From IMG/VR virus record IMGVR_UViG_3300037631_006232, positions 64,001 through 128,000 of that record: a DNA stretch of 64,000 nucleotides; one strand, 5' to 3'. Below are positions 599 through 43,739 of this stretch, in pieces. The stretch comes from a virus. Taxonomy: Duplodnaviria > Caudoviricetes. The translations under genes and the position numbers were made by a program. The notes beneath the pieces were generated by a model. The model was not told the origin of the DNA. It was given only the letters and a program-made list of their open reading frames with translations, and did not search any database. Each line of letters begins with the position of its first letter. Position 1 is the first letter of the stretch.

Positions 599-627
599 TT
601 GAAATCAGGGTGTGTAGTGCATATACT
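599..627 (+). promoter_or_regulatory. sigma70-like promoter for the RNAP/virion operon
   Basis: TTGAAA-N17-TATACT; overlaps the divergent phage-type promoter. Confidence 0.5.
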
Positions 628-654
628 TATGACACATACAGAGTAAATTTTGTG
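624..654 (-). promoter_or_regulatory. Conserved phage promoter motif copy
   Basis: CACAAA-N14-TGTCATAAGTA upstream of the 1..533 gene. Confidence 0.7.
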
Positions 655-663
655 AGTTTTACT

Positions 664-3600
664 ATGGCAAAAAGTACAAGATATCTTAATGCTTCTCCTG
701 AGGAGAGGCAGAGACAGCTGCGTCAAAAAACCCTAGAAGGTGTGCAGAGTTTATTTCCTATAATAGGAACTCACCATACCATAGAAGCGGACAATTTTGA
801 GGTTCAAGAAAAAGAAGTTAACTATAGTGATCATAAAAAAGCTTTGTTTAAAGGAGGGTCTATATATGAGCCTATAAAGGCTACGGTTGTTATAAAAGAC
901 AAAGCCGGTAATGTCGTATCTAAGAGGAACAAACATACGGTTATGCACCTGCCTAGAGTGACTCATCATAATACTTTTATAGTCAACGGTAACGAGTACG
1001 CACTTAAACACCAGCTTAGAACCAAGCCTGGGGTGTATACTAGAAGAAGAGGTAGTGAAGAATTAGAATCTAGCTTTAACCTGGCTAAAGGAGCTAACTT
1101 TAGGTTAAGCCTAAATCCTACTAGAGGCGGCCTTCAGATGGAGTACGGAAGCTCTAAAATTCCTATGTACCCTATACTAAAACAAATGGGTATTAGCGAT
1201 ACTGACATGTCAAAATATTGGGGCAAAGACCTAGTGCAGCGCAATAGGGACTTGTATGGTAAAACCTCCGATAAAGCAGTAGCTAAGCTTTTTTCTAAAA
1301 TAGTGCCTAAGTCGGAACAGTCCTTATACGAGAGTGTACAGGATAAATCACAAGCTATATTGAGAGCTTACGAAAACACTATCTTAGATCCAGAGACTAC
1401 TAAAACAACCTTAAAAAAATCTTTTGATAAAGTAACCCCAGAGGCCTTGTTAGTAGCTAGCAAGAAGCTTGTATCTGTGTATAATGATGAAGATTCAGAG
1501 GACGAGCGAGATAGCTTACAGTTTCAAAAGGTTGTAGGTCCCGAGGACATATTTAAAGAACGTTTGGAGTTGAAGGCTAGGGAACTTAAGTGGAAAATTA
1601 AGAATAAGTTAGACCTTAGTCCGAATGTTAGCGTTGCTAAAGTAATGCCTAGTACTTCGACTAATGGGGAACTTAAAAAGTTTTTGAGTACGGCCCAACT
1701 AGCTAGCTTACCTTCTCAAATAAACCCTGTAGAAATGCTGGATAGCTCCCTAGCGGTAACTCGCTTAGGGGAAGGTGGTATATCTAACGAAAGAGCAGTT
1801 CCTGCTTCTGCTCGTAAATTACACTCATCTACATTAGGTATTATAGATCCTTTTAGGACACCAGAATCAGGTAATGTCGGAATAGATCAAAGATTTACTT
1901 TAGGTGCTCGGAGGGACGATGCGGGAAATCTATACGCCTCTATGGTAGATGCTAAAACAGGAAAGGCGGTAGCCATAGCTGCTAAAGATATGGCCAACAA
2001 AGTTATAGCCTTCCCAAATCAAGACACCAAAACTGGTAGTGTAGACGCCATGATACGAGGTAAAGTAGGTAAAGTAAAACCCAGAGAGGTTGACTATCTT
2101 ATAGCCAATGCTCCTAAGATGTACACTACTAATACTAATCTAGTGCCTCTGCTTGATAGTACTCAAGGTAATAGAATTATTATGGGTTCAAAAATGGTAG
2201 GGCAAGCTATGCCTTTAGTTAATAGAGAGAAACCTCTAGTAATGAGTTCTTTTGTTAGCGACGGGGATGATGAGTCTAAATCTATAGAAAGGGTTGTAGG
2301 CTTATCTACAACTCCCGGAGTTGGGGCAGAAGACGATGGGGTCGTTGAAGAGGTTTCAGACACCCATATAAAAATTAAATACAAGACTAAGGGAGACGTA
2401 TCCTACGAGATACCCAAAAATATGCCTTTAGCCTCCAAGACTTTCTTAGACGGGGTGGTTAGGGCTAAAAAAGGGGACCGTGTTAAAGTAGGAGATACTT
2501 TAATGGATACTAACTTTACTAAAGACGGTACCTTAGCTTTAGGTCGTAATTTAAAAGTAGGTTATTTAGCCTACCACGGTTTAAATTCAAACGACGCAGT
2601 AGTTATGAGCAAGCAAGCCACAGAGAAAATGGCTTCTATAAACATGACTAAATTTGTAATAGAGACTGATAGAGATACTTTGATAGATAGGAATAAGCAC
2701 TCTGCAAACTTCCCCAGACAATTTACTAAAGACCAGTACTCTAAGATGGATAAGGGAGTTATACAGGTAGGGCAGAAACTCAGGTCAGGAGATCCTATAG
2801 CGGCAGTTCTTAGAAAAAAAACACCCAGTATAGAGAACCAAATACTAGGTAAAATACATAAATCTCTTAGGCAGGAGTACTCTGACGCCGCAGAGACTTG
2901 GGATAAAGAATCCGAAGGAGAAGTAGTGGCCGTAGAAAAAGAGGGTAAAAGAACTACTGTTGTAGTTCGGAGTGTTGAGAAATTAAAAATAGGGGACAAG
3001 GTAAGTAATAGGTATGGAGGTAAAGGGGTTATTAGTAAGATAATACCTGATGAGGATATGGTGCAAGATGAGTCGGGTAAACCTATAGATATACTCTGGA
3101 GCTCTTTAGGGGTTGTTAGCCGTATCAATCCTTCGCAAGTAATTGAAACTGCCGCCGCAAAAGTTGCTGAGAAGATGGGTAGATCTATTGCTATACCTTC
3201 TTTTAAAAAACGTAATAATGTTGAGTGGGTGCGAGGCTTGATGAAAAAGCATGGGGTAAAAGATAAGGAGACTGTGTTTGACCCTATAACAGGTAAAAAG
3301 ATACCCAACATAATGGTAGGGCCTCAGTACACCTATAAGTTATTTAAAAGTTCAGACACTAACTATGCCGCTAGAGGCCTTAATGGAGGGTATGACATTA
3401 ATGAGCTGCCTAGTAAAGGAGGGGTTACAGGAGCAAAGGGCACTGGTATAATGGAAATCAATGCTCTTCTAGCGCATGATGCTAGAGATATTATTAAAGA
3501 AAATGCTATTATTAAAGGCACTCGCAATACTGAGTTTTGGAGAGCCTTCCAACTAGGCAGGCCCTTGCCTCCTCCCAAGTCTAGCTTCGCATTTGATAAG

Positions 3601-5025
3601 TTTAAAGGTATGCTTGCAGGGGCTGGTATACGGTTTAAAAAGGAAGGGAATCATATGTCGTTGGTGCCTATGACAGATTCTGAAGTTAGAGGCATGTCTA
3701 ATGGGGAAATAGAGAATGGGAGAATGGTTTTGGCTAAGAATTTAAAAAGTGAAAAAGGAGGGCTATTTGATATAGGTAAAACAGGAGGTATAGTAGGTAC
3801 TAAGTGGACGCATGTAGAACTGCCCGAGCCTATAGTTAACCCCTTATTTAAAGACGCTAGTAGGCGATTACTAGGGCTGACAGATAAACAACTAGATGAG
3901 CAGACCTTTTCTAAAGGTGGGGATTTTGTTAAAAAAGAGCTCAACTCTATAGATATAGATTCCCGATTAACCTCCCTTAAGAAAGCACTGCCTACTTCTA
4001 AAGGTGCTGATAAAGATAATGCTTATAAGCAGATAAAGGCTCTAAATGCTTTAAAAACTAACAATATTAAACCCGGTGATGCTTATACTATGAAAGCTTT
4101 CCCGGTGCTACCTCCAAAACTAAGACCCGTAGTTCCTGGTGCTAAAGGCGATCTTTTGATATCCGATGTTAATCATGTATACAAAGATCTTATACTAGCC
4201 AAGCAAAAGCTTAAAGAAGCCCAAGATCTAGGCTTACCAGATGAAGATGTTGCTAGTATGCGTAAGCATGTTTCTGAAGCTGCAGGAGCTGTTATTGGTA
4301 CTAGAGAACCTGTGTCTTCAAAGCTGGCGGCTAAGCAGGTTAAAGGTCTTGTTAATACTATTACAGGTACTAAAACAGGCTTCTTTAATGGTAAAGTTTT
4401 AGCTAGGAGACTAGACTTTACAGGTAGAGGTACAGCTGCACCGGACCCTAGCCTAGGTATGGATGAGGTGGGTCTTCCAGAATCTATGATGTGGGATATG
4501 TACGCTCCTTTCGTTATGAAAAACTTATCCAGAGGAGGGTACTCTGCCCTACAGGCTAAAAAAATGGTGGAAGATAAATCAAGTCGAGCTAGAGAAGAGC
4601 TTATGATAGAATCTAACAGACGTCCTGTTATACTTAATAGAGCACCTTCTTTACACAGATTTAATGTTATTGCTTTTAAGCCCAAACCAGTTAGCGGTAC
4701 TACTATACAAGTTAACCCTTTTATGGAGGATGGTATGAACTTAGATTATGATGGAGACGCTCTACAAGTACATGTCCCTGTTACTGACGGAGCGGTCACT
4801 GATGCTAAAAAACTGTACCTATCTAATAATGTACTAGGCGATAGAAATAGAGGCACTTTACTAGCTTACCCTAAGCAGGAAGCTATGGCAGGTATTTTTA
4901 AAGCTACTTCAGCTAGTAAATCCTCAGGCCCTATTAAAAAATTTAAAACAAGTAAAGAAGCTATGTCTGCTTACCGGCGGGGAGACGTTTCTAGTACAGA
5001 CATGGTGGAGATAGAAGATGACTAG
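664..5025 (+). CDS. rpoBC: Multisubunit RNA polymerase: beta subunit fused to N-terminal catalytic half of beta'
   Basis: beta motifs FIVNG, TPESGNVG, MGSKMVGQA, GDKVSNRYGGKG, GVVSRIN, GIMEINAL; then beta' motifs HVELPEP, PVLPPKLRP, RLDFTGRG, NRAPSLHR and catalytic NLDYDGD. ATG 664 preferred as start. Confidence 0.95.
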   Translation: MAKSTRYLNASPEERQRQLRQKTLEGVQSLFPIIGTHHTIEADNFEVQEKEVNYSDHKKALFKGGSIYEPIKATVVIKDKAGNVVSKRNKHTVMHLPRVTHHNTFIVNGNEYALKHQLRTKPGVYTRRRGSEELESSFNLAKGANFRLSLNPTRGGLQMEYGSSKIPMYPILKQMGISDTDMSKYWGKDLVQRNRDLYGKTSDKAVAKLFSKIVPKSEQSLYESVQDKSQAILRAYENTILDPETTKTTLKKSFDKVTPEALLVASKKLVSVYNDEDSEDERDSLQFQKVVGPEDIFKERLELKARELKWKIKNKLDLSPNVSVAKVMPSTSTNGELKKFLSTAQLASLPSQINPVEMLDSSLAVTRLGEGGISNERAVPASARKLHSSTLGIIDPFRTPESGNVGIDQRFTLGARRDDAGNLYASMVDAKTGKAVAIAAKDMANKVIAFPNQDTKTGSVDAMIRGKVGKVKPREVDYLIANAPKMYTTNTNLVPLLDSTQGNRIIMGSKMVGQAMPLVNREKPLVMSSFVSDGDDESKSIERVVGLSTTPGVGAEDDGVVEEVSDTHIKIKYKTKGDVSYEIPKNMPLASKTFLDGVVRAKKGDRVKVGDTLMDTNFTKDGTLALGRNLKVGYLAYHGLNSNDAVVMSKQATEKMASINMTKFVIETDRDTLIDRNKHSANFPRQFTKDQYSKMDKGVIQVGQKLRSGDPIAAVLRKKTPSIENQILGKIHKSLRQEYSDAAETWDKESEGEVVAVEKEGKRTTVVVRSVEKLKIGDKVSNRYGGKGVISKIIPDEDMVQDESGKPIDILWSSLGVVSRINPSQVIETAAAKVAEKMGRSIAIPSFKKRNNVEWVRGLMKKHGVKDKETVFDPITGKKIPNIMVGPQYTYKLFKSSDTNYAARGLNGGYDINELPSKGGVTGAKGTGIMEINALLAHDARDIIKENAIIKGTRNTEFWRAFQLGRPLPPPKSSFAFDKFKGMLAGAGIRFKKEGNHMSLVPMTDSEVRGMSNGEIENGRMVLAKNLKSEKGGLFDIGKTGGIVGTKWTHVELPEPIVNPLFKDASRRLLGLTDKQLDEQTFSKGGDFVKKELNSIDIDSRLTSLKKALPTSKGADKDNAYKQIKALNALKTNNIKPGDAYTMKAFPVLPPKLRPVVPGAKGDLLISDVNHVYKDLILAKQKLKEAQDLGLPDEDVASMRKHVSEAAGAVIGTREPVSSKLAAKQVKGLVNTITGTKTGFFNGKVLARRLDFTGRGTAAPDPSLGMDEVGLPESMMWDMYAPFVMKNLSRGGYSALQAKKMVEDKSSRAREELMIESNRRPVILNRAPSLHRFNVIAFKPKPVSGTTIQVNPFMEDGMNLDYDGDALQVHVPVTDGAVTDAKKLYLSNNVLGDRNRGTLLAYPKQEAMAGIFKATSASKSSGPIKKFKTSKEAMSAYRRGDVSSTDMVEIEDD

Positions 5026-5266
5026 AATGCAGTTAGCCTATATTGCCGGAGTCAAATTAGCTTATGCTGTTAAGTTGTCTGACGAAAGCCCTGATGTTAT
5101 CAAATCAGAAGAACAATTACGTTCTCTTTTAAAAATTATAGGCGGGGATTCTCCTAAAAGCTCTCCTAATAAAGTAGTTATTAACTCTGAAGATAAGCAA
5201 TCTAAGGCCTCTTGGGGAGATAAAATTGAGCTAGAAGCAGGTAGCTCTACCGGCATAGAGGTTTAG
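5018..5266 (+). CDS. Small putative virion/internal protein with AYIAGVKLA leader
   Basis: Overlaps RNAP stop; leader motif shared with neighbouring genes. Confidence 0.65.
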   Translation: MTRMQLAYIAGVKLAYAVKLSDESPDVIKSEEQLRSLLKIIGGDSPKSSPNKVVINSEDKQSKASWGDKIELEAGSSTGIEV

Positions 5267-5272
5267 AAGAAT

Positions 5273-6118
5273 ATGGATTCTAATGATATTACGAAGGCTT
5301 ACGAAGCAGGTAAGCAACTAGCTTACGAAGGTAGAGAGAAGAGTGCTTTCTTATCCTCAGTTTTAAAAGGCGGAAAGTTCTTATTTACTGGAGGGCACTT
5401 AGGCAAGCCAGGGTCTCTTATATCTAAATTAAGCCCACATCATATAGGGGCTCCTTTAGGAGGGGGTGCTATGGGGGCTTACTTTGCTGAAGACGGTGAA
5501 AAATCTAAAGGGTTTATTAAAGGTTTTGCCGGAGGTCTTTTATTCAATGCTGCTATGCCTCTAGGTTCTAGTATAGGTAAAAGGATACTGGCCCCCGGGT
5601 TCTCTGGAGCAGGGTCTGCTAAGATAATGAAAGGTATTGGTTTCTCCGATGAGGCTACCGCAGCTATGAAAGCTTCTCAGAATATAAATAAGGCTCTTAA
5701 TACTAGACAAGGAGTATTTAGAGGAGTTACAGAACGTGCCTTATCCTCCGGTAATTTCAAAGGCTCAGCCAAACTAACCCAATCTATAGATGATGTATTA
5801 AAAAATCAGGGTAAAATGTTACCTGATGCTGTAAAAACTAGGCTAACTAACTTACAATCCCAACTATCAGCGGGCTTATCTCCAACCAACCAGAAAAAAT
5901 TCCTTGAAGAATTGCAAGATGTAAGCAGCACCTTGTACCGAACTGGTTATGCTACAGGTACTAAAGGACAGCAGTTTGCCCTTAAAGGTACTAGATTCGC
6001 AAAAGGAGTAGGCATGATAGGTGGTGGTATGGGGTTAGGTATGGCTTTAACAGGGCCTATGGAAAGATCTTTGGACTCTACTCCCTCTTCTTACTTTAAC
6101 TCTACGGGAGGACACTAA
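5273..6118 (+). CDS. Gly-zipper putative internal virion protein
   Basis: AYEAG leader, EKSA motif, GxxxG hydrophobic segments. Confidence 0.65.
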   Translation: MDSNDITKAYEAGKQLAYEGREKSAFLSSVLKGGKFLFTGGHLGKPGSLISKLSPHHIGAPLGGGAMGAYFAEDGEKSKGFIKGFAGGLLFNAAMPLGSSIGKRILAPGFSGAGSAKIMKGIGFSDEATAAMKASQNINKALNTRQGVFRGVTERALSSGNFKGSAKLTQSIDDVLKNQGKMLPDAVKTRLTNLQSQLSAGLSPTNQKKFLEELQDVSSTLYRTGYATGTKGQQFALKGTRFAKGVGMIGGGMGLGMALTGPMERSLDSTPSSYFNSTGGH

Positions 6119-7893
6119 TGGTCCGTGGTAAATTTGCCGATGTCATTTTAAATAATTCTTTGCCCAAGGACTACAGGATAGAAGGGGAGATGGATACTAA
6201 AAAGTTAAAAGCAAGTATGTTACGTATGGCTAAAACTAGCCCAGAAACTTATAAGGTAGTTATCCCTAAGATTAAAAAATTAGGGGACGAGTTTTCTACC
6301 TTCGAAGGTATTTCTGTAGGGCTAGAAGATATAGAGCCGGAGTATAGTAAAAGAAATCCTATACTAAATAACGCCAAACGAAAATTACGTATGGTAGGTA
6401 CAGATGCTAAAAAGAAAATGGCTATATTACTTGATACCCAATCTAAATTGCGGGATATAACAACTAACCACCCTGGGGATATGGGTATGATGGCTAGATC
6501 AGGTAGTAGGGGTAATATGAATCAACTAATGAAAATGGTAGCTAGCCCAGGGATTGTAGGAGATTGGGACGGTGCCCCTATACCTTTCTTAATAGAGAGG
6601 GGGTACTCTGAAGGCTTGTCTCCAGCAGAAGCTTGGATAGCCGGAGATGAGAGTAGGGCTCAAGTTATTAAGGGTCAGTTAGGTACTGCAGAACCCGGGG
6701 AGATGCAGAAAGTTTTGGCATCAGTGATGACTGAAGAAGTGATTGCTTCTAATGATTGCGGTACCAGTAATGGAATATTACTGGAAGCGTCGGACCCTTC
6801 AGTAGAAGGTAGGTACCTAACCACGGGGTCTTTAGCTACGGCTTCTGTAGCCGCTACTCTAGCAAGGAAAGGTAATAAAGTTAGGGTACGCTCTCCTATG
6901 ACGTGCGAATTAGACTCAGGGGTTTGTCAAAAATGTATGGGAACAAGTAACTCCGGTAAGAACTACTCAATAGGGATTAATGTAGGTATACGCTCCGCAC
7001 AAACGCTAAGCGAACCTCTAACCCAAATGGCTCTTAGCGCTAAACACGGGGTGTCTTTAGTAGAAGGTGATCATAAAACTCCTAAAGGGTTAGCTGCCTT
7101 CAAGCAATTTGTGGAAGTCCCTAAAAACTTTTTTCAAAGAGCTCCAGTATCCGATATTGATGGGAGGGTGGAGTCTGTCGCTAAAGCACCTCAAGGAGGG
7201 TTTGATTTAGTCATTGAAGGCTCCCAGCATTACATACCTCCTAATAGAGATTTAAAAATAAAAGTGGGATCTAAAGTGCGTGCGGGAGATGTGTTAGCTT
7301 CAGGTATACCCGCTCCGGATGATGTTATTAAATATAAAGGTCTGGGTGCTGGTAGAGATTACTTAATGAAATCTCTTAGAAAGGTTTACTCTGAGTCAGG
7401 TAAAGAAGTTGATCCTAGACACTTGGAGTTATTAGCTAAGTCTCAATTAAACTATGTACGAATAGATGGAGGCTCCAAAGAATTCTTACCAAACGATATA
7501 GTATCCATTTCTAAAATTAGGAGTTCATTTAAAGATAAAGGGCAGGCAGTACCTTTAAACCAAAGTGTAGGCAAAGTGCTAACTAAGTCTGTAGGAGCTC
7601 ACCTACCGGGCACTAAAATAACTTCCGTAGTTAGGGATGAGTTAGGAAAAGAGGGCGTAGGTACCGTCTATGCTGTTGATTCTAATATAAAAATCACACC
7701 TATAATGGCCGCCGCTACCAGAACACCCTTACTAAACCCTAATTGGATGCAACGTCTAGGTTACAGATACCAAAAACAAACCCTTATAAACGCCGCGACT
7801 TTTGGAGAAAAGTCGGATTTGCACAGCCATAACCCCGTACCCGCTCTAGCTGTAGGTAGTGAGCTTAGAAGAGATGCGAAAGGTAGATACTAA
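6118..7893 (+). CDS. rpoC: RNA polymerase beta' C-terminal half (RpoC2-like)
   Basis: GISVGLEDI, MARSGSRG, bridge-helix region, DCGT and CELDSGVCQKC Zn site, trigger loop SEPLTQMALSAKH, DPRHLE. Confidence 0.93.
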   Translation: MVRGKFADVILNNSLPKDYRIEGEMDTKKLKASMLRMAKTSPETYKVVIPKIKKLGDEFSTFEGISVGLEDIEPEYSKRNPILNNAKRKLRMVGTDAKKKMAILLDTQSKLRDITTNHPGDMGMMARSGSRGNMNQLMKMVASPGIVGDWDGAPIPFLIERGYSEGLSPAEAWIAGDESRAQVIKGQLGTAEPGEMQKVLASVMTEEVIASNDCGTSNGILLEASDPSVEGRYLTTGSLATASVAATLARKGNKVRVRSPMTCELDSGVCQKCMGTSNSGKNYSIGINVGIRSAQTLSEPLTQMALSAKHGVSLVEGDHKTPKGLAAFKQFVEVPKNFFQRAPVSDIDGRVESVAKAPQGGFDLVIEGSQHYIPPNRDLKIKVGSKVRAGDVLASGIPAPDDVIKYKGLGAGRDYLMKSLRKVYSESGKEVDPRHLELLAKSQLNYVRIDGGSKEFLPNDIVSISKIRSSFKDKGQAVPLNQSVGKVLTKSVGAHLPGTKITSVVRDELGKEGVGTVYAVDSNIKITPIMAAATRTPLLNPNWMQRLGYRYQKQTLINAATFGEKSDLHSHNPVPALAVGSELRRDAKGRY

Positions 7894-8600
7894 TGAAGTT
7901 ACCTCCCAACCTAACTAAACTGGTAAGCAAGTTCTTAATCGGCACAGAAAAACTATCCCCTAAAGTAGAATCTAACCTGCGACGGTTAATAACCTCCTCC
8001 GGAAGAGCCTTAGAAACCTCTGCTAATTCCCGAGGATTCTTAATGGATACTCTAATAGGTCGTAAGGGCGGGCTTGATGTTATCAAAGCAAGAGTTCAGC
8101 AAGGCGGCTTACTAGGCCCAGGAGGAGCTATCTTAGGCGATGCTGCCCTAGATCCTAAATTTAAGCAGCTTGTTAGAAACATAGCTAGCTCAAAAGGGGC
8201 TAAGGAAATAGTGAATCCAGATACGGGTAAAGCTATAAGCAGAACTTCTGCTTACGGTAAAGCCTTAGGTATGGGCGCCTTGGAAAGCCTCAACCCTATT
8301 TTTAGTTTAGGTATGCCCGTACTAGATGCTAGAGCCGCTATGCTAAGGCCCGATCACGAAGAAGATGGGGGGTACTCCGGCATATTAAAAGCTCTGGGTT
8401 CCGGAGCGGGTTTCGCTATAGGAGGGCCTCTAGGCCTTATAGGTGGCTCTATAACCGGAGAATTGGGAGGTAGGCTAGGAAAGTCTATAGGAGAAATGTT
8501 TGACCCGACTAATACGGACTTAAAAAATATTAATGTTGCTCTTAAAAAAATTCCCAGTAATTATATACTAGACGAAGCTGTTCCGTCACAATATACTTAA
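7893..8600 (+). CDS. Gly-zipper hypothetical protein
   Basis: Coupled to the rpoC stop; GSGAGFAIGGPLGLIGG segment. Confidence 0.7.
   Translation: MKLPPNLTKLVSKFLIGTEKLSPKVESNLRRLITSSGRALETSANSRGFLMDTLIGRKGGLDVIKARVQQGGLLGPGGAILGDAALDPKFKQLVRNIASSKGAKEIVNPDTGKAISRTSAYGKALGMGALESLNPIFSLGMPVLDARAAMLRPDHEEDGGYSGILKALGSGAGFAIGGPLGLIGGSITGELGGRLGKSIGEMFDPTNTDLKNINVALKKIPSNYILDEAVPSQYT
8569..8597 (+). promoter_or_regulatory. sigma70-like promoter
   Basis: TAGACG-N17-TATACT upstream of 8640. Confidence 0.45.
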
Positions 8601-8639
8601 CCATGAAACAAATATGTTAAACCTAGTATTGGAGAAATC

Positions 8640-9758
8640 ATGTCTATACTAAAATTTGCTTACGTGCGTGGTGCTCAAAATGCTCTCGTATCCTCAGGAG
8701 CTATCGAGCCTTACCCTAACGAATATAGAGCGGATCTAGCTGTTAAGCTAGCAGCAATGGCTCTTGAAGATGACGCTGCTGAAGATGTTAATGATGATGA
8801 GTTAGCGCAGGCCTTAGCTTCCATGGCAGCTCAGGCCGAAGACGAGCTGAGTCCAGAAGAAGAAGCCATGCTTATGGAAAATAAAGATGAGCTAGAAGAG
8901 GCTATGGATGAAGACGAGAAGAATGCTAGAGCCGTAGTTTCCTACTTGAAACAAGCTGCTGCAGGCCACTTCCAAGGAGGCGTAGCCAACCCTAAACCTG
9001 TAAATCCCGGCGATTTTGAGCAAGATTCTAGAGCTCCTGGTGCTTACCATATGAATGGTAAGAATGGTCCCTTGGTAGGAGACTATAATGCTACCCCAAG
9101 CACTGCTTCTATGCAATCTTTACGTGAAGGCATTACTCCTCAAGTGGCGGGGAAAAAGAAAAACGACCTAGACGCTAAAACTGCAGCCGCAATTTTACGT
9201 AAGCTAGGGGGTACTGCTGCCTTAGGTGGAGATGCTGGAGAACTTCTTAGTCAAGAAGATAAACAAGACGACGGTCGAGCTGAAAACTACGCGGTTAACG
9301 CTACAGTAGGTAATTCTACAGGCAAATCCAATTCGACTCCTGGAAATGCAGAGATGCTCGCACATGATGAGGATACCCCAGCTAACAAATTAGATCATGA
9401 AAATGATTCTAAAACCAAGAGTGCTGCCTACAACTACTTGCTATATAAAACAGCTGAAGAAGTGGGACCTTTCTTACCTTCAGAGCTAACTGAGACTGAT
9501 AAACTAGCAGCTCTTAGAACTATGATAGGGATGACTCAACCTGAAAGAGCCCAATATATCCAACGAATTAAATGGGCTATGGATGATTCTGAAGAAGAGC
9601 GGGACGATGCCGACACTAAAGAAGAGAAAGAGAAAGAAGATAAACAAAAAAAGTTACCTCCAGAGCTTAGAGAGGCTATAGCTAAGAAGGAGAAGGACGA
9701 TGATGATGCTGAAAAAGAAGCTTCTTATATTTTAAGACAGCTAGGGTTGAGGTACTAA
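8640..9758 (+). CDS. Acidic KxA-rich putative internal head protein
   Basis: AYVRGAQNA leader; KLA, KNA, KQA, KTA, KSA, KEA motifs; GGAG RBS. Confidence 0.7.
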   Translation: MSILKFAYVRGAQNALVSSGAIEPYPNEYRADLAVKLAAMALEDDAAEDVNDDELAQALASMAAQAEDELSPEEEAMLMENKDELEEAMDEDEKNARAVVSYLKQAAAGHFQGGVANPKPVNPGDFEQDSRAPGAYHMNGKNGPLVGDYNATPSTASMQSLREGITPQVAGKKKNDLDAKTAAAILRKLGGTAALGGDAGELLSQEDKQDDGRAENYAVNATVGNSTGKSNSTPGNAEMLAHDEDTPANKLDHENDSKTKSAAYNYLLYKTAEEVGPFLPSELTETDKLAALRTMIGMTQPERAQYIQRIKWAMDDSEEERDDADTKEEKEKEDKQKKLPPELREAIAKKEKDDDDAEKEASYILRQLGLRY

Positions 9759-9761
9759 GAT

Positions 9762-10133
9762 ATGGACTTACGAACTGCTTACATCGCAGGTATGTCTCAA
9801 GCTTTTACTAATAGCGGTCTTCTACCTTCTATACCTTTAGAAAAGGTAGCCCAAGGAGCCGAGATAGCTGCTCAAGCTACCCCTCAAGAAGCTCAGATGG
9901 TAGGCCAGGCCATAGGCCCGCAAGATCTAGAATCTATGATGAAGATACTAGAGGTACTAAGTATTTTGTTTGAACAATACCAGGCGCAAATGGGTGGCGC
10001 ACCTCAGGGAGCTGGAGCACCTCCTCCTCCAGGCGGTATGCCCCCTCCTCCTCCTCCAGGCGGTATGCCCCCTCCTCCTCCTCCTCCAGGTGGTATGCCT
10101 CCTCCTCCTCCAGGTGGTATGCCCCCCATGTAG
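9762..10133 (+). CDS. Putative internal head protein with polyproline tail
   Basis: AYIAGMSQA leader, EKVA motif, repeated GGMPPPP C-terminus. Confidence 0.75.
   Translation: MDLRTAYIAGMSQAFTNSGLLPSIPLEKVAQGAEIAAQATPQEAQMVGQAIGPQDLESMMKILEVLSILFEQYQAQMGGAPQGAGAPPPPGGMPPPPPPGGMPPPPPPPGGMPPPPPGGMPPM
10020..10130 (+). repeat. Coding tandem repeat (cct)n-cca-ggy-ggt-atg
   Basis: Four P(n)GGM units visible in the DNA. Confidence 0.9.
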
Positions 10134-10180
10134 TGTACTATACTTAACAGAATATACTTTAATCTGTTGAGATAGTAACT

Positions 10181-10789
10181 ATGAAAATAAAAGATCTAGC
10201 GACCTTATCTGGCTCGGAAAGGATAAGACTAGCTTTAGGATTAGATAAAGAGCAAGCTAATAAGATTAAACTTATTGCTAAATCTATGACAGAAGTAAAC
10301 CCTCATATAAAAAATTTACGTGTGGGTAAGTCTAAACCAGGGGTTAGTTTTTTTGATTTTAAAAATAATCAAGTAGGCATTGGACATAAGTCTCCGGATG
10401 TATTAGCCCATGAGTTGGGGCATGCTATATCCTTAGCTAACTCCTCTAAGTTTTATAGGAGTCTTTTAAAAAGCACTAAGAAACTTACTAGCCTCAGCAA
10501 CGCTGCCTCCTTTCCTTTAGCAGGGTTTGCTGCATTAAGCCCAACCATGGCTAAAGATAAGAAGATGCGACTTCTTAACTATGCTACTATAGCCAGCACT
10601 GCTGTTACTATGCCTAACTTATTCGAAGAGCTTAAAGCTACTGCTTTAGCCGCTAAGCATAGTCCTAATAAAATTACCACAGGTATATCTTTGTTACCTG
10701 GGTTAATTAGTCATCTAAGCCATGACCTAACGGCACCCGCAACCTATTTATTAACTAAACAACTACTTGGAGCCAGTACCAATGATTAA
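10181..10789 (+). CDS. HExxH zinc metallopeptidase-like, membrane-associated protein
   Basis: LAHELGHA with a downstream FEELKA motif and hydrophobic helices. Confidence 0.7.
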   Translation: MKIKDLATLSGSERIRLALGLDKEQANKIKLIAKSMTEVNPHIKNLRVGKSKPGVSFFDFKNNQVGIGHKSPDVLAHELGHAISLANSSKFYRSLLKSTKKLTSLSNAASFPLAGFAALSPTMAKDKKMRLLNYATIASTAVTMPNLFEELKATALAAKHSPNKITTGISLLPGLISHLSHDLTAPATYLLTKQLLGASTND

Positions 10790-15878: not shown

Positions 15879-17348
15879 GTGAGTTTAAATAAAATACTAG
15901 AAGTAGATGACTATTTTAGAGGGTCTAATGGGCTCGAACCTACTGTTCAACTTATAGACTTCAATAGCAAAACTGCTTCTGTTGCGTCTGACTGGGCTAC
16001 TAGGGTTACTCCCGTAACAGGTAAGACTTATATACTAGTTTTAGCTATGGGCGCTAGTGAGTTTTATGGGCCTAATAGGAACGGAGATGCTTTTGAAGAA
16101 AAAGAGTTGAAAGAGCATCACCACACTTTTGAAACCAACGCTCATGTTTTTAAGTCTCACGTCAACAAGGACCCTGCTAAAAGCTTTGGTAAAGTGATTA
16201 AAAGTTTTTACAACGATGATATGCATAGGGTAGAGCTAGTCTTAGAGATAGATAATGGTAAAGCTCCAGACATAGTTACTAAGATTAATTCCGGTAACAG
16301 TGTAGCCGTATCAATGGGGTGTAAGATTAAGTATGATGTTTGTAGTATATGCGGTAACAAAGCACCTACTCGTGCGCAGTACTGTAAACACCTAAAAAAT
16401 GAACTCAATAAAATCTACCCAGATGGAAGGGTAGTGGCTGCGTACAACCCTAAGCCTAATTTTTTCGATATATCTATAGTATGGCGGCCGGCAGATAAAA
16501 CCGGTTATATGCTAAAAAAAGTGGCTAACTCAAGAGAGTTGGGAGCTAGTTCTGCGTGGTTAGCGGAGAAACTAGCCGCTAGAGTAACCTTGTCTAAGTA
16601 CTTAGACAAGGCTGCTGAGATAGAAAAAATGGTTAGTGGCGTAGGTATCGGTATGACTTCCAACAAGGAAGATAGTAATCCTTCTAGCTACTTGAATAAG
16701 CAGTGGCTTAAATCAGTGGTTCCGAAACTTAAAAATTCTTTTATAGAATTGAACGATGAAGATAAAGATTACTTGAGTAAGAAAAACCTACCTAAAGTAC
16801 TTTCTAGTTTAAGTGATATGGGGATATTTCTAGCTACCCCGGAATTTTTAGACTTGGTATATTTGAAGGCTGTGGGTAAAAAAGCTCCTGAAGGTCTAGC
16901 ATCAAATCTTATCTCCTTACAATCAGATATATTTAGCATGGTGGCTAAATACCCAGACTTGGCAGAAGATTTGATATACAGTGATATAGCACCCACGGGT
17001 TCCGAAGTTATTGATCCTGAGGTTCAAGATAAAGTTGCTAAATATATACCGCTTAGATCCTTAGACGAGGCTTGGTTACTATCTAGACCTACTCAATTTT
17101 TAAAAAACTCTAGCGAGAATCTGTGTTCTAGCTCCACCATATTACCAAGAAGCTCTGTTGCTGTGCCAGAATTAGATAAAGTGGCCAGCATTAGTTATGC
17201 TGTGTATATATCTACTATACTGGATACTATTGACAACCCTTCATATACTAAGCTAGCTTCTATTAGGTCTCAAGACACAGAAGGGCTTAGAGATAGTAAG
17301 TCTCGTCCTTGGACCGCCCTAACAGTATTGGCCTTAAACCATATTTAA
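15879..17348 (+). CDS. Prohead maturation serine protease with Zn-finger insert
   Basis: NRNGDAF, H in FKSHVN, VSMGC followed by CSIC...CKH; lies upstream of scaffold and capsid genes. Confidence 0.8.
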   Translation: MSLNKILEVDDYFRGSNGLEPTVQLIDFNSKTASVASDWATRVTPVTGKTYILVLAMGASEFYGPNRNGDAFEEKELKEHHHTFETNAHVFKSHVNKDPAKSFGKVIKSFYNDDMHRVELVLEIDNGKAPDIVTKINSGNSVAVSMGCKIKYDVCSICGNKAPTRAQYCKHLKNELNKIYPDGRVVAAYNPKPNFFDISIVWRPADKTGYMLKKVANSRELGASSAWLAEKLAARVTLSKYLDKAAEIEKMVSGVGIGMTSNKEDSNPSSYLNKQWLKSVVPKLKNSFIELNDEDKDYLSKKNLPKVLSSLSDMGIFLATPEFLDLVYLKAVGKKAPEGLASNLISLQSDIFSMVAKYPDLAEDLIYSDIAPTGSEVIDPEVQDKVAKYIPLRSLDEAWLLSRPTQFLKNSSENLCSSSTILPRSSVAVPELDKVASISYAVYISTILDTIDNPSYTKLASIRSQDTEGLRDSKSRPWTALTVLALNHI

Positions 17349-19711: not shown

Positions 19712-20860
19712 ATGAATACAGAGCGTGAGCGCCTAAGTGCGCAGTTTATTAATCAAAGCTTTGTCCGTAAATTGGACGAAGGACGAGTAAAAGAAGCAGC
19801 TGACGAAGGTAGTCGGTTCATTAGATCAAAGCTACGCCAAGAAAGCTTTGCACGAGAAATCTTGCAACCTATTGAGCTTAGCCCAGACGAGATCGATCGT
19901 GACGAGCACACAGATCAACCTAAGAAAATCATCGAAAAAGAGCCTGATTCAACAGCTACTTTCGTAACTTTCAAAGGATCTGGACAACGTACTTTCTTCC
20001 GTGGACCTCGTTACTCAGTATTCTTCGGAAAAGTTGAATCACAACATTTCATGAAGAGCAAGTTCGAACTTCTTACTTACCAAAACGACATCCGCAAAAT
20101 CTTAACTGACAACTCAGTTAAAGATATGGCTGACGTAGAAGATCAAAAGTTCATTGAAACTATTGAAGCTGCTTTAGATGATGCAGGATCTACTTTAGAT
20201 AAACGCTCCAGTGACGGAGCTGCTTCTATTGATGGTGATAATGTAACCTCTTTTGGCGGAGTAGAGTTCTTACCTCTTGCAGATTCAGCAGTAGGTGCAA
20301 ATCTAACTGGTAATCTAGGAGCAACTCAGTTTACTGGAGAACAACTTCTCAATGGTAACAACTTTGTGGCTAGGGCTGCAGAACGTGATGCTGGAGGAGC
20401 TACTGAAATTAGTGGTTCTAAGTTCGATCTTGGAGCACAAGCACCTCTTAGCAAAGAACTTATCGCACAGTTGTTCCAAGCTATGACTGCTAAGAAACTT
20501 CCTATCGGTAAAATGCTTATGAGCAAGACTACCTTCATGGAAGCTCTTAAATTTGACTATAACGATGTTGGTAACGACATTGTTTCTCGTCACTATGACA
20601 ACGGTCTTGAAGGCGAAGATAAGCTCTTTGGTGTACCTGTAATTACTACTATCAAGAATGACATTATTCCTGATAACGTAATCTACTTGTTTGCTCCTGA
20701 GAACTACCTCGGTAACTTCTTCCTTCTACAAGACGCTACTCTATTCATTAAGCAAGAAGCTGATATGATTGAGTTCTGGTCTTACTCTTCTCCTGGAATT
20801 GGTATTGGTAACACTAAAGGTGTTATTAAACTTTCTGGATTTAAGAGCGTAGGCGCTTAA
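19712..20860 (+). CDS. Major capsid protein (HK97-fold)
   Basis: Position, AAGGAG RBS, strongly optimised codons, LFGVPVITTIK and APENYLG motifs, followed by a terminator. Confidence 0.85.
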   Translation: MNTERERLSAQFINQSFVRKLDEGRVKEAADEGSRFIRSKLRQESFAREILQPIELSPDEIDRDEHTDQPKKIIEKEPDSTATFVTFKGSGQRTFFRGPRYSVFFGKVESQHFMKSKFELLTYQNDIRKILTDNSVKDMADVEDQKFIETIEAALDDAGSTLDKRSSDGAASIDGDNVTSFGGVEFLPLADSAVGANLTGNLGATQFTGEQLLNGNNFVARAAERDAGGATEISGSKFDLGAQAPLSKELIAQLFQAMTAKKLPIGKMLMSKTTFMEALKFDYNDVGNDIVSRHYDNGLEGEDKLFGVPVITTIKNDIIPDNVIYLFAPENYLGNFFLLQDATLFIKQEADMIEFWSYSSPGIGIGNTKGVIKLSGFKSVGA

Positions 20861-20893
20861 TAGTAGATAGTAATAGTCTCCACCGGTAGGACC

Positions 20894-20922
20894 TTGGTCT
20901 CACCTTAAAAGCCTCGTATACT
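20894..20922 (+). promoter_or_regulatory. sigma70-like promoter with -10 inside the MCP terminator
   Basis: TTGGTC-N17-TATACT. Confidence 0.45.
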
Positions 20923-20950
20923 TTGTTAAGAAGTATTCGAGGTTTTTTAT
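20907..20950 (+). terminator. Intrinsic terminator after MCP
   Basis: gcctcg-tatactt...aagtatt-cgaggt stem followed by T-tract. Confidence 0.7.
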
Positions 20951-20961
20951 TGGAGAAACTA

Positions 20962-23975: not shown

Positions 23976-24050
23976 TAGCTCCTTAAAATTGAAGTAGACT
24001 TAGTAGCATACACACGATAGTATACTAACTGCTTAGATTTTAGGGAGCTA
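23976..24050 (+). promoter_or_regulatory. Long hairpin occluding the SD of 24054, with internal sigma70-like promoter (23995-24023)
   Basis: tagctccttaaaat pairs with attttagggagcta; TAGACT-N17-TAGTAT inside. Confidence 0.55.
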
Positions 24051-34443: not shown

Positions 34444-34472
34444 TTGCAAACTAGGCAGGAGAGCAGTACACT
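34444..34472 (+). promoter_or_regulatory. sigma70-like promoter
   Basis: TTGCAA-N17-TACACT. Confidence 0.5.
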
Positions 34473-34500
34473 CTTACAACTAATATAAGGAGGTGTTCTC

Positions 34501-36024
34501 TTGCCTATACAACAATCTTTTAACATACAGCACGGGGTAGTAGTTACCTCTAGCCCCAACACCTATACATGCGAAGTCAGAGAAGACTCTGCTATAGGCT
34601 CTTCTAAAGATACAATAACGTGCAACATACTACAGTCTGTATACTCTTCCAAAGAAGATTCTATTGGGTTTTTCTTGCCAGAGGCGGAGACTAAAGTTCT
34701 GTTTATATCTACAGTATCTGGGCACGGTACTATACTTGGGTACCTACCAGAAACATCCGCAGAAAGACTGCCTCCTTCCAGTTTAGATCCTATAGCTAAT
34801 CAAGATGTAGCTAATTATAAAGGTAACTTAGATAGCGACATATTGCCGGGCGATCTTATAACTAGGATAGGATCAAGCTCTGTTCTTCTTACAGACTCTA
34901 GTTACTCGGCTAAATCAGGTACTGCTGAGATTGTTCTAGATAATCAATACGGCAACTCTTGTATTAGAAGTTCTGCTAATACCGTAAAGCACGATAATTC
35001 CTTGTTTTCCTTTATGGTTTCTGACCCAGGAGGTTCTAGCTCTCCTAGAATGGATATGGATTTTTTCTTAGGAAATAAATCTAATAGAGGATCTTACAAA
35101 ACTAGTTACAAAGAGAGCTCTACTCCTACCATGAGTATAACCTCTTCTGTAGATAAACCTCTAGAGCTGAAAATGCCTAAGTCCAGTATAAGTATAGATA
35201 GTATGGGCCGGTTAGTTCTAGAAGGTAAAAGTGTTACTATAAAGAGTGATGGTAAGGTGCAATCTTGGGGAGAAGGTGAAGAGGAAACCTTGCATAGGGT
35301 ACTATCTACAGATATCCACTTAGAGTCTACTCGCAATGTGTCTATAAAAGCTGATTATGGGACCCTAGATTTACACGGGAATCAAGCTAAGTTAAAAGGG
35401 GATTCTGGCGTTAGTATCGATGGTGCTAAGGTAAGTATTATCTCTAATGATACACGAGAGAATGCTCTGCCAGGGATAGACCAGACACTGCTACTTAACG
35501 CAGCTCGAGGAGGTATAGAGATAAAATCCGGATTAAAAATACCTAATGATAGCAGTATAACAAAACCGGGTATAGCACTGGAGTCGGAGGCGGGAGGTGA
35601 TATACACATAAAAACTAACCCTAATGTAGGGTCGGGGTTTTCTACGGGATCTATAGTTTTAGATGCTTCGCTACCTCTTAGTGTGAGTGGTTCAGGGGGT
35701 GTAGGGAGTTATGGTATTGTACTAAACTCCCCTAATGTAATACTTGGTGGTTATGCTGGCGTTCCCGACACTCCTAAAGGCGTTATTAGTCCTTTCGCCC
35801 CTCCAGTACCTCCTATAGTAGATGGTCCTTTAAAACACTTTTCACAGATGACCATACATTATCCCGCGCTACTAGCAGCCGGTAATAAAGGGCTTACTGC
35901 GGCTTTTCCTATAACGTCTTTTATATCAGTACCTATTTTTACAGGTATAATGGCTACTGCTTTAGCTCTAATGGCGGCTCCTACAATAGGTAGGCCTACT
36001 TCAGTACATTTAGGAGGTATATAA
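34501..36024 (+). CDS. Baseplate spike/hub-like protein (N-terminal OB fold, beta-helix)
   Basis: LPEAETKVL..ILGY OB-like motif, repetitive beta strands; AGGAGG RBS with TTG start. Confidence 0.55.
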   Translation: MPIQQSFNIQHGVVVTSSPNTYTCEVREDSAIGSSKDTITCNILQSVYSSKEDSIGFFLPEAETKVLFISTVSGHGTILGYLPETSAERLPPSSLDPIANQDVANYKGNLDSDILPGDLITRIGSSSVLLTDSSYSAKSGTAEIVLDNQYGNSCIRSSANTVKHDNSLFSFMVSDPGGSSSPRMDMDFFLGNKSNRGSYKTSYKESSTPTMSITSSVDKPLELKMPKSSISIDSMGRLVLEGKSVTIKSDGKVQSWGEGEEETLHRVLSTDIHLESTRNVSIKADYGTLDLHGNQAKLKGDSGVSIDGAKVSIISNDTRENALPGIDQTLLLNAARGGIEIKSGLKIPNDSSITKPGIALESEAGGDIHIKTNPNVGSGFSTGSIVLDASLPLSVSGSGGVGSYGIVLNSPNVILGGYAGVPDTPKGVISPFAPPVPPIVDGPLKHFSQMTIHYPALLAAGNKGLTAAFPITSFISVPIFTGIMATALALMAAPTIGRPTSVHLGGI

Positions 36025-39810: not shown

Positions 39811-39839
39811 CTTTGCTCCTCATGCATAGGTTAGTAAAC

Positions 39840-39909
39840 CCCGAACACTTACGGGTGCACCAACTCGCAGATGGAGGGGCATCTACGGATTGAACTGCAA
39901 GTGTTCGGG
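39840..39909 (-). ncRNA. Candidate structured RNA (long imperfect hairpin)
   Basis: 11-bp outer stem, 8-bp inner stem; G-U pairs favour the minus strand. Confidence 0.4.
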
Positions 39910-39966
39910 AGCGTGATAATTTCACACTCTTTTATAGAAAGCAACCCCCTCTCACCGAATACACAC

Positions 39967-40000
39967 AAAAAAAAACAGAGACACCCGAAGATGCCTCTGC
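39967..40000 (-). terminator. Intrinsic terminator downstream of the Arg tRNAs
   Basis: CAGAGGCATC-TTCG-GGTGTCTCTG followed by T9. Confidence 0.9.
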
Positions 40001-40041
40001 TTAAGTAATACTTCTTTTTCTCTTTCTATCACAAAAGAGAG

Positions 40042-40113
40042 TACATCTGGTAGGATTTGAACCTACGACCAATGGCTTAGAAGGCCACTGCTCTTCCACT
40101 GAGCTACAGATGC
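40042..40113 (-). tRNA. tRNA-Arg (TCT)
   Basis: Cloverleaf with anticodon loop CT-TCT-AA and T-arm GGTTCAAATCC. Confidence 0.92.
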
Positions 40114-40123
40114 GGGTTAAACC

Positions 40124-40201
40124 TTATTTACCTTTAGGGGTATTTCCACGACCACCACCTGAAGAGTTGCCGGTAGAAGAAGGATAGTTTGGATTACTCA
40201 T
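40124..40201 (-). CDS. 25-aa micropeptide MSNPNYPSSTGNSSGGGRGNTPKGK
   Basis: CAGGAGA RBS at correct spacing; lies between two tRNAs. Confidence 0.55.
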   Translation of the reverse strand: MSNPNYPSSTGNSSGGGRGNTPKGK

Positions 40202-40349
40202 AGTAAATCTCCTGTTCTATTCTGTTTAGCTCTCAAGTGTAGTGAGGGTCTTAGGTCTGAGAGATTAACCCACCGCATTATTTTGTTACTTAGTATTCTA
40301 CGCTTCGGGCTTTTACGAGAACACTGTCTTCCTAGGAAGCGGTATTATT

Positions 40350-40422
40350 TACACTCAACAGGGCTCGAACCTGCGACACCCACTTTAGGAAAGTGGTGCT
40401 CTTCCGACTGAGCTATAAGTGC
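40350..40422 (-). tRNA. tRNA-Arg (CCT)
   Basis: Cloverleaf with CCACT-TTCCTAA-AGTGG anticodon arm and GGTTCGAGCC T-arm. Confidence 0.9.
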
Positions 40423-43602: not shown

Positions 43603-43662
43603 AAATACTCCTTATGAAAAGTTTACTACTGAGACTTTCAGAACCATTCTGGTAGCCTCATA

Positions 43663-43696
43663 TACTTATGCCATAAAGGAGGTACCTATTTGCGTG
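43663..43696 (-). promoter_or_regulatory. Conserved phage promoter
   Basis: CACGCAAA-N15-TGGCATAAGTA. Confidence 0.8.
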
Positions 43697-43710
43697 CTTA
43701 TCCCCTACCC

Positions 43711-43739
43711 TAGCCATCTAAGGGATGTTTTACTATACT
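43711..43739 (+). promoter_or_regulatory. sigma70-like promoter
   Basis: TAGCCA-N17-TATACT upstream of 43759. Confidence 0.45.

Follow-up and report, generated by a model that had tools for sequence, protein, structure and literature searches.

An Arash-like phage encodes an RNA polymerase, two sigma70-family factors and two strand-specific classes of promoter-like element

Introduction

Which RNA polymerase (RNAP), and which sigma factor, reads the two kinds of promoter-like element found on opposite strands of a viral genome whose own RNAP genes sit among its head genes? The question is raised by a stretch of 64,000 nucleotides (nt), here called the window, which spans positions 64001-128000 of one 147,116-bp IMG/VR virus record from an uncultured marine phage (IMGVR_UViG_3300037631_006232; linear; CheckV 87% complete); positions below refer to the window unless the record or another genome is named. 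A first interpretation made from the letters alone, hereafter the sequence-only reading, proposed a two-polymerase programme, in which a packaged phage RNAP serves the early genes and the host RNAP transcribes the structural genes from sigma70-like promoters. Our analysis indicates that the underlying observation is real but narrower than stated. Two promoter classes, divided by strand and gene class, and the location of the RNAP genes in the head module stand, and packaging of the RNAP is plausible by homology; the host-RNAP step appears to be the weaker of the available readings, and a two-sigma programme fits better than a two-polymerase one. The mechanism that we rank as most likely, above transcription by the host RNAP, is one phage core working with two phage sigma factors, to which we give a rough probability of 0.5: a holoenzyme with the factor that we call sigma2 would read the minus-strand (class A) promoters, and sigma1 would direct transcription from the plus-strand (class B) promoters, on either the phage's or the host's core.

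The guanine-cytosine (GC) content is about 41%, and a simple gene call gave 169 genes. On the plus strand, positions 664-38453 form a single long series of head and tail genes, and small minus-strand genes dominate the region from 43 to 63 kb; the window is the head, tail and early-gene portion of an Arash-like phage. When the large RNAP protein is used as a tblastn query, the closest cultured relatives prove to be Salmonella phage Arash (180.8 kb) and the Vibrio phages D69, D148 and D181 (about 187 kb), with around 34% identity over 96-98% of the query, and many uncultured contigs are closer (50-85% identity).

A cellular-type RNA polymerase within the head module

The phage core is encoded by two genes:

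664..5025, plus strand: RNAP large subunit, beta fused in frame to the N-terminal half of beta' (through the catalytic NxDxDGD), recognized by Pfam, NCBIfam and alignment to bacterial subunits
6118..7893, plus strand: C-terminal half of RNAP beta' (bridge helix, trigger loop), matching Pfam Rpb1_5 (5e-18) and Rpb1_4 and NCBIfam rpoC (4e-54)

The first open reading frame matches Rpb2_6 (5e-45), Rpb2_3, Rpb1_1 and Rpb1_2 in Pfam, and rpoB (6e-88) and rpoC (1e-65, model positions 152-534) in NCBIfam. It is the orthologue of Arash gp206 (34% identity over 98%), and its ATG at 664 is the start codon kept in relatives; the second is the orthologue of Arash gp216. The Pfam domain scores of the RNAP are above or close to the cut-off. 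The phage enzyme aligns almost full length to bacterial subunits (Thermus thermophilus beta 109-1080; Salmonella beta' 174-550, with 32% identity), and its catalytic motif NLDYDGD falls on the NADFDGD of bacterial beta'. Beta and beta' domains, the catalytic two barrels included, are matched by Pfam and NCBIfam, in line with the cellular-type two-barrel RNAP proposed by the sequence-only reading. A second RNAP set of the phiKZ type was considered and rejected, since none is present in the record. For alpha and omega, no PF01000 or PF01192 match was obtained at E<=10 in this 87%-complete record, PF01193 and the alpha C-terminal domain lying outside that search. Regarding the elements on which a sigma factor docks, the beta flap-tip helix is present and the beta' clamp helices align without gaps. 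The phage beta' has A and M at the positions equivalent to E. coli R275 and E295, two residues that we take to bind sigma70.

The genes around the core correspond in order to those of Arash, as judged by local tblastn and the Arash annotation: portal, RNAP large subunit, C-terminal half of beta', structural protein, protease-like protein, major capsid protein and baseplate, the last being the counterparts of Arash gp233-237 that follow the capsid gene. The order portal, RNAP, protease, capsid is therefore syntenic with Arash.

-3319..-1613 (window numbering): portal, orthologue of Arash gp204
5018..10133, plus strand: small proteins flanking the RNAP genes (5018, 5273, 8640, 9762), with a common N-terminal leader (L/K)xxAYxxGxxxA(Y/F); candidate head cargo
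10782-12842: structural protein, orthologue of Arash gp218
15879..17348, plus strand: prohead protease-like head protein (PHROG head maturation protease, 9e-12; 53% identity to Arash gp222)
19712..20860, plus strand: major capsid protein (44% identity to Arash gp226, annotated as major capsid protein)

The sequence-only reading had described the RNAP genes as interleaved with virion-type genes carrying a KxA motif, and this description holds, given that the surrounding head genes carry K-x-A-S motifs and the common leader. K-(T/V/L)-A-S occurs at residues 24-46 in eight consecutive head-module proteins (13583-19687), the protease-like protein included, which fits prohead protease cleavage sites. 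The four small proteins with the common leader have no Pfam or PHROG match and are otherwise unrelated to each other; their leader might direct them to the capsid, as a signal separate from the K-x-A-S cleavage sites. A strict K-x-[AS]-[SEN] leader was also sought on the RNAP subunits, and none lies near either N-terminus.

Packaging of the RNAP in this phage is plausible because its Arash orthologues are abundant in purified particles. Mass spectrometry of Arash virions found gp206 to be the most detected protein (128 unique peptides, 3516 spectra), together with gp216 (40 peptides, 1210 spectra), the helicase gp217 encoded next to it (38 peptides, 1148 spectra) and the sigma factor gp10 (24 peptides, 467 spectra); for comparison, the portal and the capsid protein gave 32 and 30 unique peptides, and replication enzymes 2-3 peptides each, evidently as contaminants (PMC10585845). 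The second Arash sigma factor, gp196, is not in the virion table of that work, whose authors propose a possible role of the RNAP in early transcription and in which the word "promoter" has 0 occurrences (PMC10585845).

The plus-strand element: a narrow motif rather than a generic sigma70 promoter

The sequence-only reading had cited nine plus-strand sites, and all of them have T(T/A)Gnnn, exactly 17 nt and a TAnnnT-like hexamer, as claimed. They are listed here with two tandem sites, the first of which takes in the TATACT of the site at 8569:

599..627, plus strand: TTGAAA-N17-TATACT, class B promoter of the RNAP gene, 10/12 consensus match
8569, plus strand: TAGACG/TATACT
8564..8597, plus strand: tandem TATACT pair (8564, 8592) before gene 8640
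17352, plus strand: TTGGTT/TACTAT, poorly conserved
20894, plus strand: TTGGTC/TATACT; the capsid-gene terminator has this -10 in its 5' arm, and the "-35" falls within a small hairpin that is conserved
23995, plus strand: TAGACT/TAGTAT, with a TATACT 3 nt further on; in a long hairpin
31184, plus strand: TTGTTA/CATAAT, an ordinary weak match
34444, plus strand: TTGCAA/TACACT; in a long hairpin
40423, plus strand: TTGCTC/TATAAT, an ordinary weak match
43711..43739, plus strand: class B promoter TAGCCA-N17-cTATACTTg, 9/12 match, 25 nt before gene 43759, with no significant RNA structure
50597..50608, plus strand: tandem cTATACT TATACT just ahead of the Shine-Dalgarno sequence of gene 50620

A generic sigma70 consensus never exceeds dinucleotide shuffles in three 20-kb segments (32 vs 38.7±5.9, 42 vs 44.5±7.8 and 24 vs 31.7±4.9), so that sigma70 sites in general are not above background, an outcome that the sequence-only reading had itself named as refuting it, and the claim has to be narrowed to the TATACT element. 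Strict TTGACA-N17-TATAAT matches upstream of plus-strand genes number 7, against 3.7±2.0 in shuffles (p=0.09). The loose pattern of the sequence-only reading fares better in part: it is enriched upstream of plus-strand genes (12 vs 5.4±2.2 shuffled) but not upstream of minus-strand genes. The same holds for TATACT itself, with 13 occurrences upstream of plus-strand genes against 5.0±2.0 in shuffles of the same stretches and no enrichment over shuffles upstream of minus-strand genes; among 300 shuffles, 0 reached the observed count for either the loose pattern or TATACT. In an unbiased count, TATACT is the top 6-mer upstream of plus-strand genes (13 vs 1.56 expected genome-wide, p=1e-8), ahead of the Shine-Dalgarno words.

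The hexamer is almost always TATACT and is not spread around TATAAT. Its fuller consensus is (c)TATACTT(aa), gene-proximal sites lie 17-63 nt from the starts, and it often comes in tandem (8564/8592, 10139/10153, 50597/50603, 72588/72615). The -35 of class B is real for a subset only: of the 21 TATACT sites close to genes, 4 have T[TA]G at exactly 17 nt and 17 are without it, the frequency elsewhere being 2 of 142 (p=0.003). Sites of this class precede the portal, RNAP and other head and tail units, as well as a few other plus-strand genes, and relatives ranging from 40-52% GC retain the element where their sites are orthologous. Downstream of gene 7893-8600, TATACT is kept in relatives L012-L015 and L019, whether it falls in the last two codons or beyond the stop; the "-35" TAGACG at 8569 is coding sequence (L-D-A), so its conservation is uninformative.

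The weak match at 40423 adjoins tRNA-Arg(CCT), one of three minus-strand tRNA genes (Met-CAT, Arg-TCT, Arg-CCT; 38989-40422) that lie between the tail genes and the region of early cassettes.

The minus-strand motif

The analysis bears out the other motif, which the sequence-only reading had seen at the small minus-strand genes; the window contains 16 of these class A sites:

616..654, minus strand: class A promoter facing the gene for a 419-residue protein, scoring 33.7 with the position weight matrix (PWM); its -10 core (623-630) overlaps the plus-strand TATACT
43631..54833, minus strand: array in which 13 class A promoters each precede a small gene, PWM scores 33-55; ATAAGTA cores start at 43669, 46065, 47043, 47465, 47780, 49855, 50565, 52180, 52590, 53290, 54065, 54529 and 54795
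60136..63239, minus strand: two more class A sites, with cores starting at 60142 (weaker, PWM 22.8) and 63201 (39.6)

The words TAAGTA, ATAAGT, CATAAG, TGGCAT and CGCAAA are the top ones upstream of minus-strand genes in an unbiased k-mer test. Of the 19 sites that the PWM detects in the record, 17 had gone into building it and two came from the scan; 18 are on the minus strand. The consensus reads aC(G/A)CAAAt, followed by some 10 variable bases and TAT-n-TGGCATAAGTA-nn-TGA, which can be shortened to CGCAAA-N18-TGGCATAAGTA or extended to aCGCAAAt-N~18-TGGCATAAGTAnnTGA. Its -35 box and TG-n extended -10, set apart by a spacer, make class A by arrangement a putative sigma70-family promoter with unusual hexamers. 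Most sites are found 36-45 nt before the ATG, and many are preceded by a hairpin, a T-run and AGCTC. They stand directly before the SNF2 helicase gene and the small cassette genes, and head the minus-strand blocks that hold the PD-(D/E)XK nuclease and DNA polymerase A genes.

We considered whether class B is simply class A seen on the opposite strand, and rejected it although the TACTTA/TAAGTA core is common to both, since class B lacks the GGCA and CGCAAA parts; class B sites inside long plus-strand operons, with no minus-strand genes nearby, also rule this out.

Two minor features accompany class A. In the 43-55 kb region, a conserved AGCTC follows the T-run of each minus-strand cassette terminator, adjoining the class A -35 box on its upstream side or lying about 10 nt away from it in that direction, and may belong to the terminator or be an upstream promoter element. 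Moreover, a stretch of about 900 nt without a called gene (63179-64091 and just beyond; record 127179-128246) is flanked by outward-firing class A-type promoters, the one at 63201 on the minus strand and another at 64200 on the plus strand. The latter, the only plus-strand class A match in the record, serves a gene for a 282-residue protein (L040:247-1095) with only weak leads to helix-turn-helix (HTH)/XRE-like proteins.

Divergent promoters on the same bases

Upstream of the RNAP gene the two classes meet. The plus-strand TATACT (622-627) and the minus-strand CATAAGTA (630-623) share the same bases, and the -35 of each promoter falls in the transcribed region of the other. The overlap at 599-654 had been called a possible switch: the divergent arrangement is real and conserved in relatives, and mutually exclusive occupancy is a fair inference, because the -10 elements use the same bases on opposite strands and only one of the two would be occupied at a time; a regulatory switch would be conjecture.

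In an alignment of this region (A2) from eight relatives with 50-77% protein identity and 40-52% GC, the best-conserved columns are ATACTTATGACA and ATTTTG.G, down to the 50% relative L021, and the invariant ones are ATACTT, the ..CA after it, and ATTT..G.G. In the five closest sequences, L012-L015 among them, a TTG still stands 17 nt away from TATACT; L016 and L019 have TTAGGT, and spacers and flanks vary. Among the 17 PWM sites, the two bases that complete an opposite-strand TATACT are found in 3 of 5 class A sites in divergent regions and 0 of 12 others (p=0.015).

Hairpins at other plus-strand junctions

Four plus-strand junctions fold far better than shuffled sequences (z -3.6 to -5.2), the features themselves spanning 10130..10181, 20885..20952, 23976..24050 and 34444..34505 within the stretches listed:

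10125-10185, plus strand: tandem cTATACTTAA / TATACTT in a hairpin reaching as far as the start codon of gene 10181 (-20 kcal/mol, z -5.2)
20875-20952, plus strand: small hairpin and intrinsic terminator after the capsid gene (-26 kcal/mol, z -4.3, then a U-run)
23955-24060, plus strand: long hairpin with TATACT (24021-24026), whose 3' arm buries the Shine-Dalgarno sequence of gene 24054 (-34.9 kcal/mol, z -4.4)
34430-34505, plus strand: TTGCAA-N17-TACACT in a hairpin that buries the TTG start of gene 34501 (-23.6 kcal/mol, z -3.6)

In each of them the -10-like element precedes or lies within the structure, so that an RNA started at such an internal promoter would be without the 5' arm; we read these class B elements as putative promoters nested in structures that control read-through. 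The hairpin at 10139 is kept in L012 (z -3.6), with G-U pairs that are workable only in plus-strand RNA. At the capsid gene, TATACT (20917-20922) is in the 5' arm of the terminator, where CGTATACTT is invariant in L041, L042, L044 and L048 and the 3' arm drifts. No comparable structure was found at 8592, 43734, 50597, 72588/72615 or the portal site. Conservation at the later junctions was limited by the relatives available: no related loci were found for the proteins encoded at 25102-27099 and 31252-33696, and the retrieved relatives' loci hold no orthologues of those at 22500-23963 and 24054-24533.

Two phage sigma factors and the late motif

Two genes outside the window encode sigma70-family factors:

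record 56153-56821 (outside the window): sigma1, 222 residues; Pfam Sigma70_r2 (35.5 bits) and Sigma70_r4 (35.1 bits), both above the cut-off
record 24751-25452 (outside the window): sigma2, 233 residues; Pfam Sigma70_r3, 27.8 bits against a cut-off of 25.3

Sigma1, whose Arash orthologue is gp196, is RpoS-like: among NCBIfam models it matches proteobacterial rpoS best (1e-27), and its top matches in the PDB are RpoS chains. Sigma2, the orthologue of Arash gp10, is encoded directly after a cell-wall hydrolase gene in a late operon. Its AlphaFold model (34 homologues; predicted local distance difference test score, pLDDT, 83) returned only sigma70-family chains among the Foldseek top 50, with a probability of 1.00 over about 240-270 columns, and the predicted structure has the fold of sigma domains 2, 3 and 4. 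A third candidate, the 282-residue protein just beyond the window, has a weak Sigma70_r4 hit (E=0.007) and was rejected, with no Pfam, NCBIfam or PHROG match and only weak HTH/XRE leads from Atlas.

In region 2.2, sigma1 has A and N at the positions matching sigma70 Q406 and E407, which are presumed to be contacts with the core. Together with the changes in the phage beta', this hints at a matched pair of sigma and core.

The two motif classes recur across the family. Arash has at least 16 copies of TGGTATAAGTAA(A/G)GT before minus-strand genes as its early class, and TAAA(A/C)TA (CTAAAATA), 24-52 nt (mostly 26-38) before plus-strand genes, as its late class. Vibrio phage D69 has TGTTATAAG(T/A)A (15 vs 0.7 expected) and nTAAAATAT (TAAAATAT; 14 vs 0.2 expected, p=5e-21), respectively, and a 133-kb contig, G1, has GCATAAGTA and CTATA(T)ACTT. 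The late sites of Arash and D69 consist of a -10 only, T[TA]G standing at the -35 position in 1 of 11 in each, which is background. The early core YATAAGTA is kept in phages of Salmonella, Vibrio and a marine host, and has G where sigma70 needs a nearly invariant T; because it is kept across such different hosts, its reader would travel with the phage.

As for the late class, the TATACTT clade has HWVLMSMRK/YWILMYIRK in sigma1 region 2.4 and the TAAAATA clade WWVMQRQLK/WWVYQRQMK, and in region 4.2 ERVRQ, the canonical -35 reader, persists only in the clade with TTG at some of its late promoters. This apparent covariation of sigma1 with the late motif is a lead, not proof. The long form of the sigmaS -10 element in E. 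coli is TCTATACTTAA. Taken with the C and TAA on its flanks, the class B hexamer is identical to the sigmaS-type -10, whose consensus is CTATACT (PMC9793710).

In two high-GC relatives, L052 and L053 (60-64% GC), structural-gene junctions carry cTTGTGtAGG-N-CCTA(C/A)TATTCC, that is, TTGTGT/TTGTGA-N17-TACTAT/TAATAT, so that a sigma70-like layout of the late class is kept even there.

Mechanism and alternative readings

Under one phage core with two phage sigmas, four steps are envisaged. The core and sigma2 would be made late, packed into the head and injected with the DNA, as the proteome of the homologue suggests. The virion core with sigma2 would then read the class A promoters before the single-gene cassettes and the replication genes on the minus strand. 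Sigma1 would next direct class B transcription, with a core that could be the phage's or the host's. Fourth, at the RNAP and portal genes, where the -10s of the two classes lie on the same bases of opposite strands, only one of them could be occupied at a time, and at the four structured plus-strand junctions the hairpin of a read-through RNA may terminate transcription or bury the ribosome site of the next gene, whereas a transcript from the internal promoter would lack the 5' arm and so escape the hairpin.

The reading closest to the sequence-only one, namely that a packaged phage RNAP reads class A and the unaided host sigma70 or sigmaS holoenzyme reads class B, as in N4, with the phage sigmas serving otherwise, seems unlikely to us. 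It can appeal to the sigma70 architecture of class B, with the 10/12 match at 599, to the enrichment of the loose pattern upstream of plus-strand genes only, to the overlap of sigma70 and sigmaS specificity on TATACT (PMC9793710), and to N4 as a precedent. Nevertheless, the generic sigma70 score does not rise above shuffles, the hexamer is almost invariably TATACT and 17 of 21 sites are without a -35, and in the Salmonella and Vibrio relatives the late class consists of -10-only TAAAATA elements, poor sites for unaided host sigma70. The RpoS-like sigma that the phage retains also varies, in the regions that read DNA, along with the late motif. Taking a sigma70-like sequence as a sign of host RNAP at the structural genes is thus weak, because the record itself encodes two sigma70-family factors, and it is more probable that reading of the late promoters depends on a phage sigma than that the host enzyme manages it unaided. 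A part for the host RNAP could still lie in providing the core used by sigma1 or in transcribing the sigma1 gene.

An appropriation of the host core, where sigma1 on host RNAP reads class B (compare T4 gp55 and SPO1 gp28/gp34) and the phage RNAP acts early only, would again make two polymerases, and we hold it to be similarly improbable. It corresponds to the usual role of phage-encoded sigmas (PMC7824862, PMC13282480), and the region 4.2 of sigma1 (ERVRQ) is canonical. Speaking against it, the A and N of sigma1 at Q406/E407 and the changes of beta' at R275/E295 look matched, on what we presume to be the contact map.

That the plus-strand elements are mainly RNA-level signals (terminators, RNase III-type processing hairpins or translational occlusion), with TATACTT as part of the structures, is very unlikely: it would suit the four strongly folding junctions, one of them a plain terminator and two burying a Shine-Dalgarno sequence or start codon, and the retention of the 10139 hairpin in L012 with G-U pairs, but the same element is unstructured at the five places named above, it lies at a promoter-like distance from the starts, and a hairpin needs no fixed heptamer in its 5' arm while its 3' arm drifts.

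Several points weigh against the reading with one phage core and two phage sigmas. No class A promoter was found at the sigma1 gene, which has an aTGACA-N18/19-GATACT site instead, and for this reason host RNAP could be needed to make sigma1; the region upstream of that gene is alignable only to the near-identical L089 among the relatives. With A and M in place of beta' R275 and E295, any binding of a sigma to the phage core would be hypothetical. The covariation of sigma and promoter covers two clades only and is phylogenetically confounded, the assignments being otherwise by analogy. Host sigma70 and sigmaS holoenzymes would also recognise TTGAAA-N17-TATACT, and the location of several class B elements in RNA hairpins allows a non-promoter reading. 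Lastly, the Arash preparation was not clean, given that metabolic enzymes are among the 116 "virion" proteins listed (PMC10585845).

Comparison with known systems

The nearest systems are those of Arash (OQ632216; BMC Microbiol 2023, PMC10585845) and Vibrio phages D69, D148 and D181, which share the fused beta-beta'N and separate beta'C RNAP, the order portal, RNAP, protease, capsid, orthologues of both sigma genes (gp10 and gp196) and two motif classes divided by strand. They differ in the RNAP sequence (about 34% identity), in the late motif, TAAAATA without a -35 there and TATACTT here, and in an early motif without CGCAAA.

Jumbo phages of the phiKZ/AR9 type also have a head-packaged multisubunit RNAP for early genes, without alpha and omega (PMC7598289), packaging being here plausible by homology, and a strongly conserved early promoter motif that can be found computationally. 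However, they have two RNAP sets, each of 4-5 very divergent polypeptides, in place of one near-bacterial set, and no sigma70-family factor (PMC7824862, PMC13282480) in place of two; their late promoters are TATG or AACA-N6-TA, whereas both classes here have a sigma-type architecture.

N4 and the crAss-like phi14:2 package an RNAP for early genes and use a different activity for late ones. Unlike here, their virion RNAPs are single-subunit enzymes (T7-like in N4, a single-chain two-barrel enzyme in phi14:2) with no phage sigma, and the early promoters of N4 are DNA hairpins.

In T4, late promoters dominated by the -10 are likewise read by a dedicated sigma-family protein (gp55/gp33, TATAAATA), and the late motifs of the present family, TAAAATA and TATACTT, resemble both TATAAATA and the sigmaS -10 (CTATACT). 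Unlike this phage, T4 encodes no RNAP and works with the host core; sigma1 here retains region 4.

Reviews up to 2026 describe large phages that encode an RNAP as being without sigma factors, and those that encode sigma factors as being without an RNAP (PMC7824862, PMC13282480). Going by its predicted genes, the Arash-like lineage departs from this rule by encoding both, its polymerase being near enough to bacterial RNAP for detection by Pfam, and our literature searches found no described phage system that combines the two. It is possible, and we put it forward tentatively, that phages of 150-190 kb in a widespread group, which takes in Arash, the Vibrio D69 group and many marine contigs, have their own complete holoenzyme of bacterial style, without alpha and omega and with beta fused to beta'-N. 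If true, this would be the first virion-packaged sigma70-type holoenzyme and an exception to the present rule of RNAP or sigmas. Should the phage sigmas work with the phage core, they would offer a minimal RNAP that depends on sigma and needs no alpha to assemble, a natural setting in which to test the co-evolution of sigma-core and sigma-promoter specificities, and compact orthogonal transcription parts. Since cultured members grow on Salmonella and Vibrio, these predictions are directly testable in the lineage.

A repeated element in Arash

Scattered over the Arash record (L007-L011) are five copies of an element, about 150-200 bp long, that inverted AACGTTGTAACC repeats delimit and whose flanks are near-identical (26630/26783, 66377/66530, 100133/100286, 138480/138633 and 173254/173407 in that genome). 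It resembles a miniature mobile element or a homing-site repeat.

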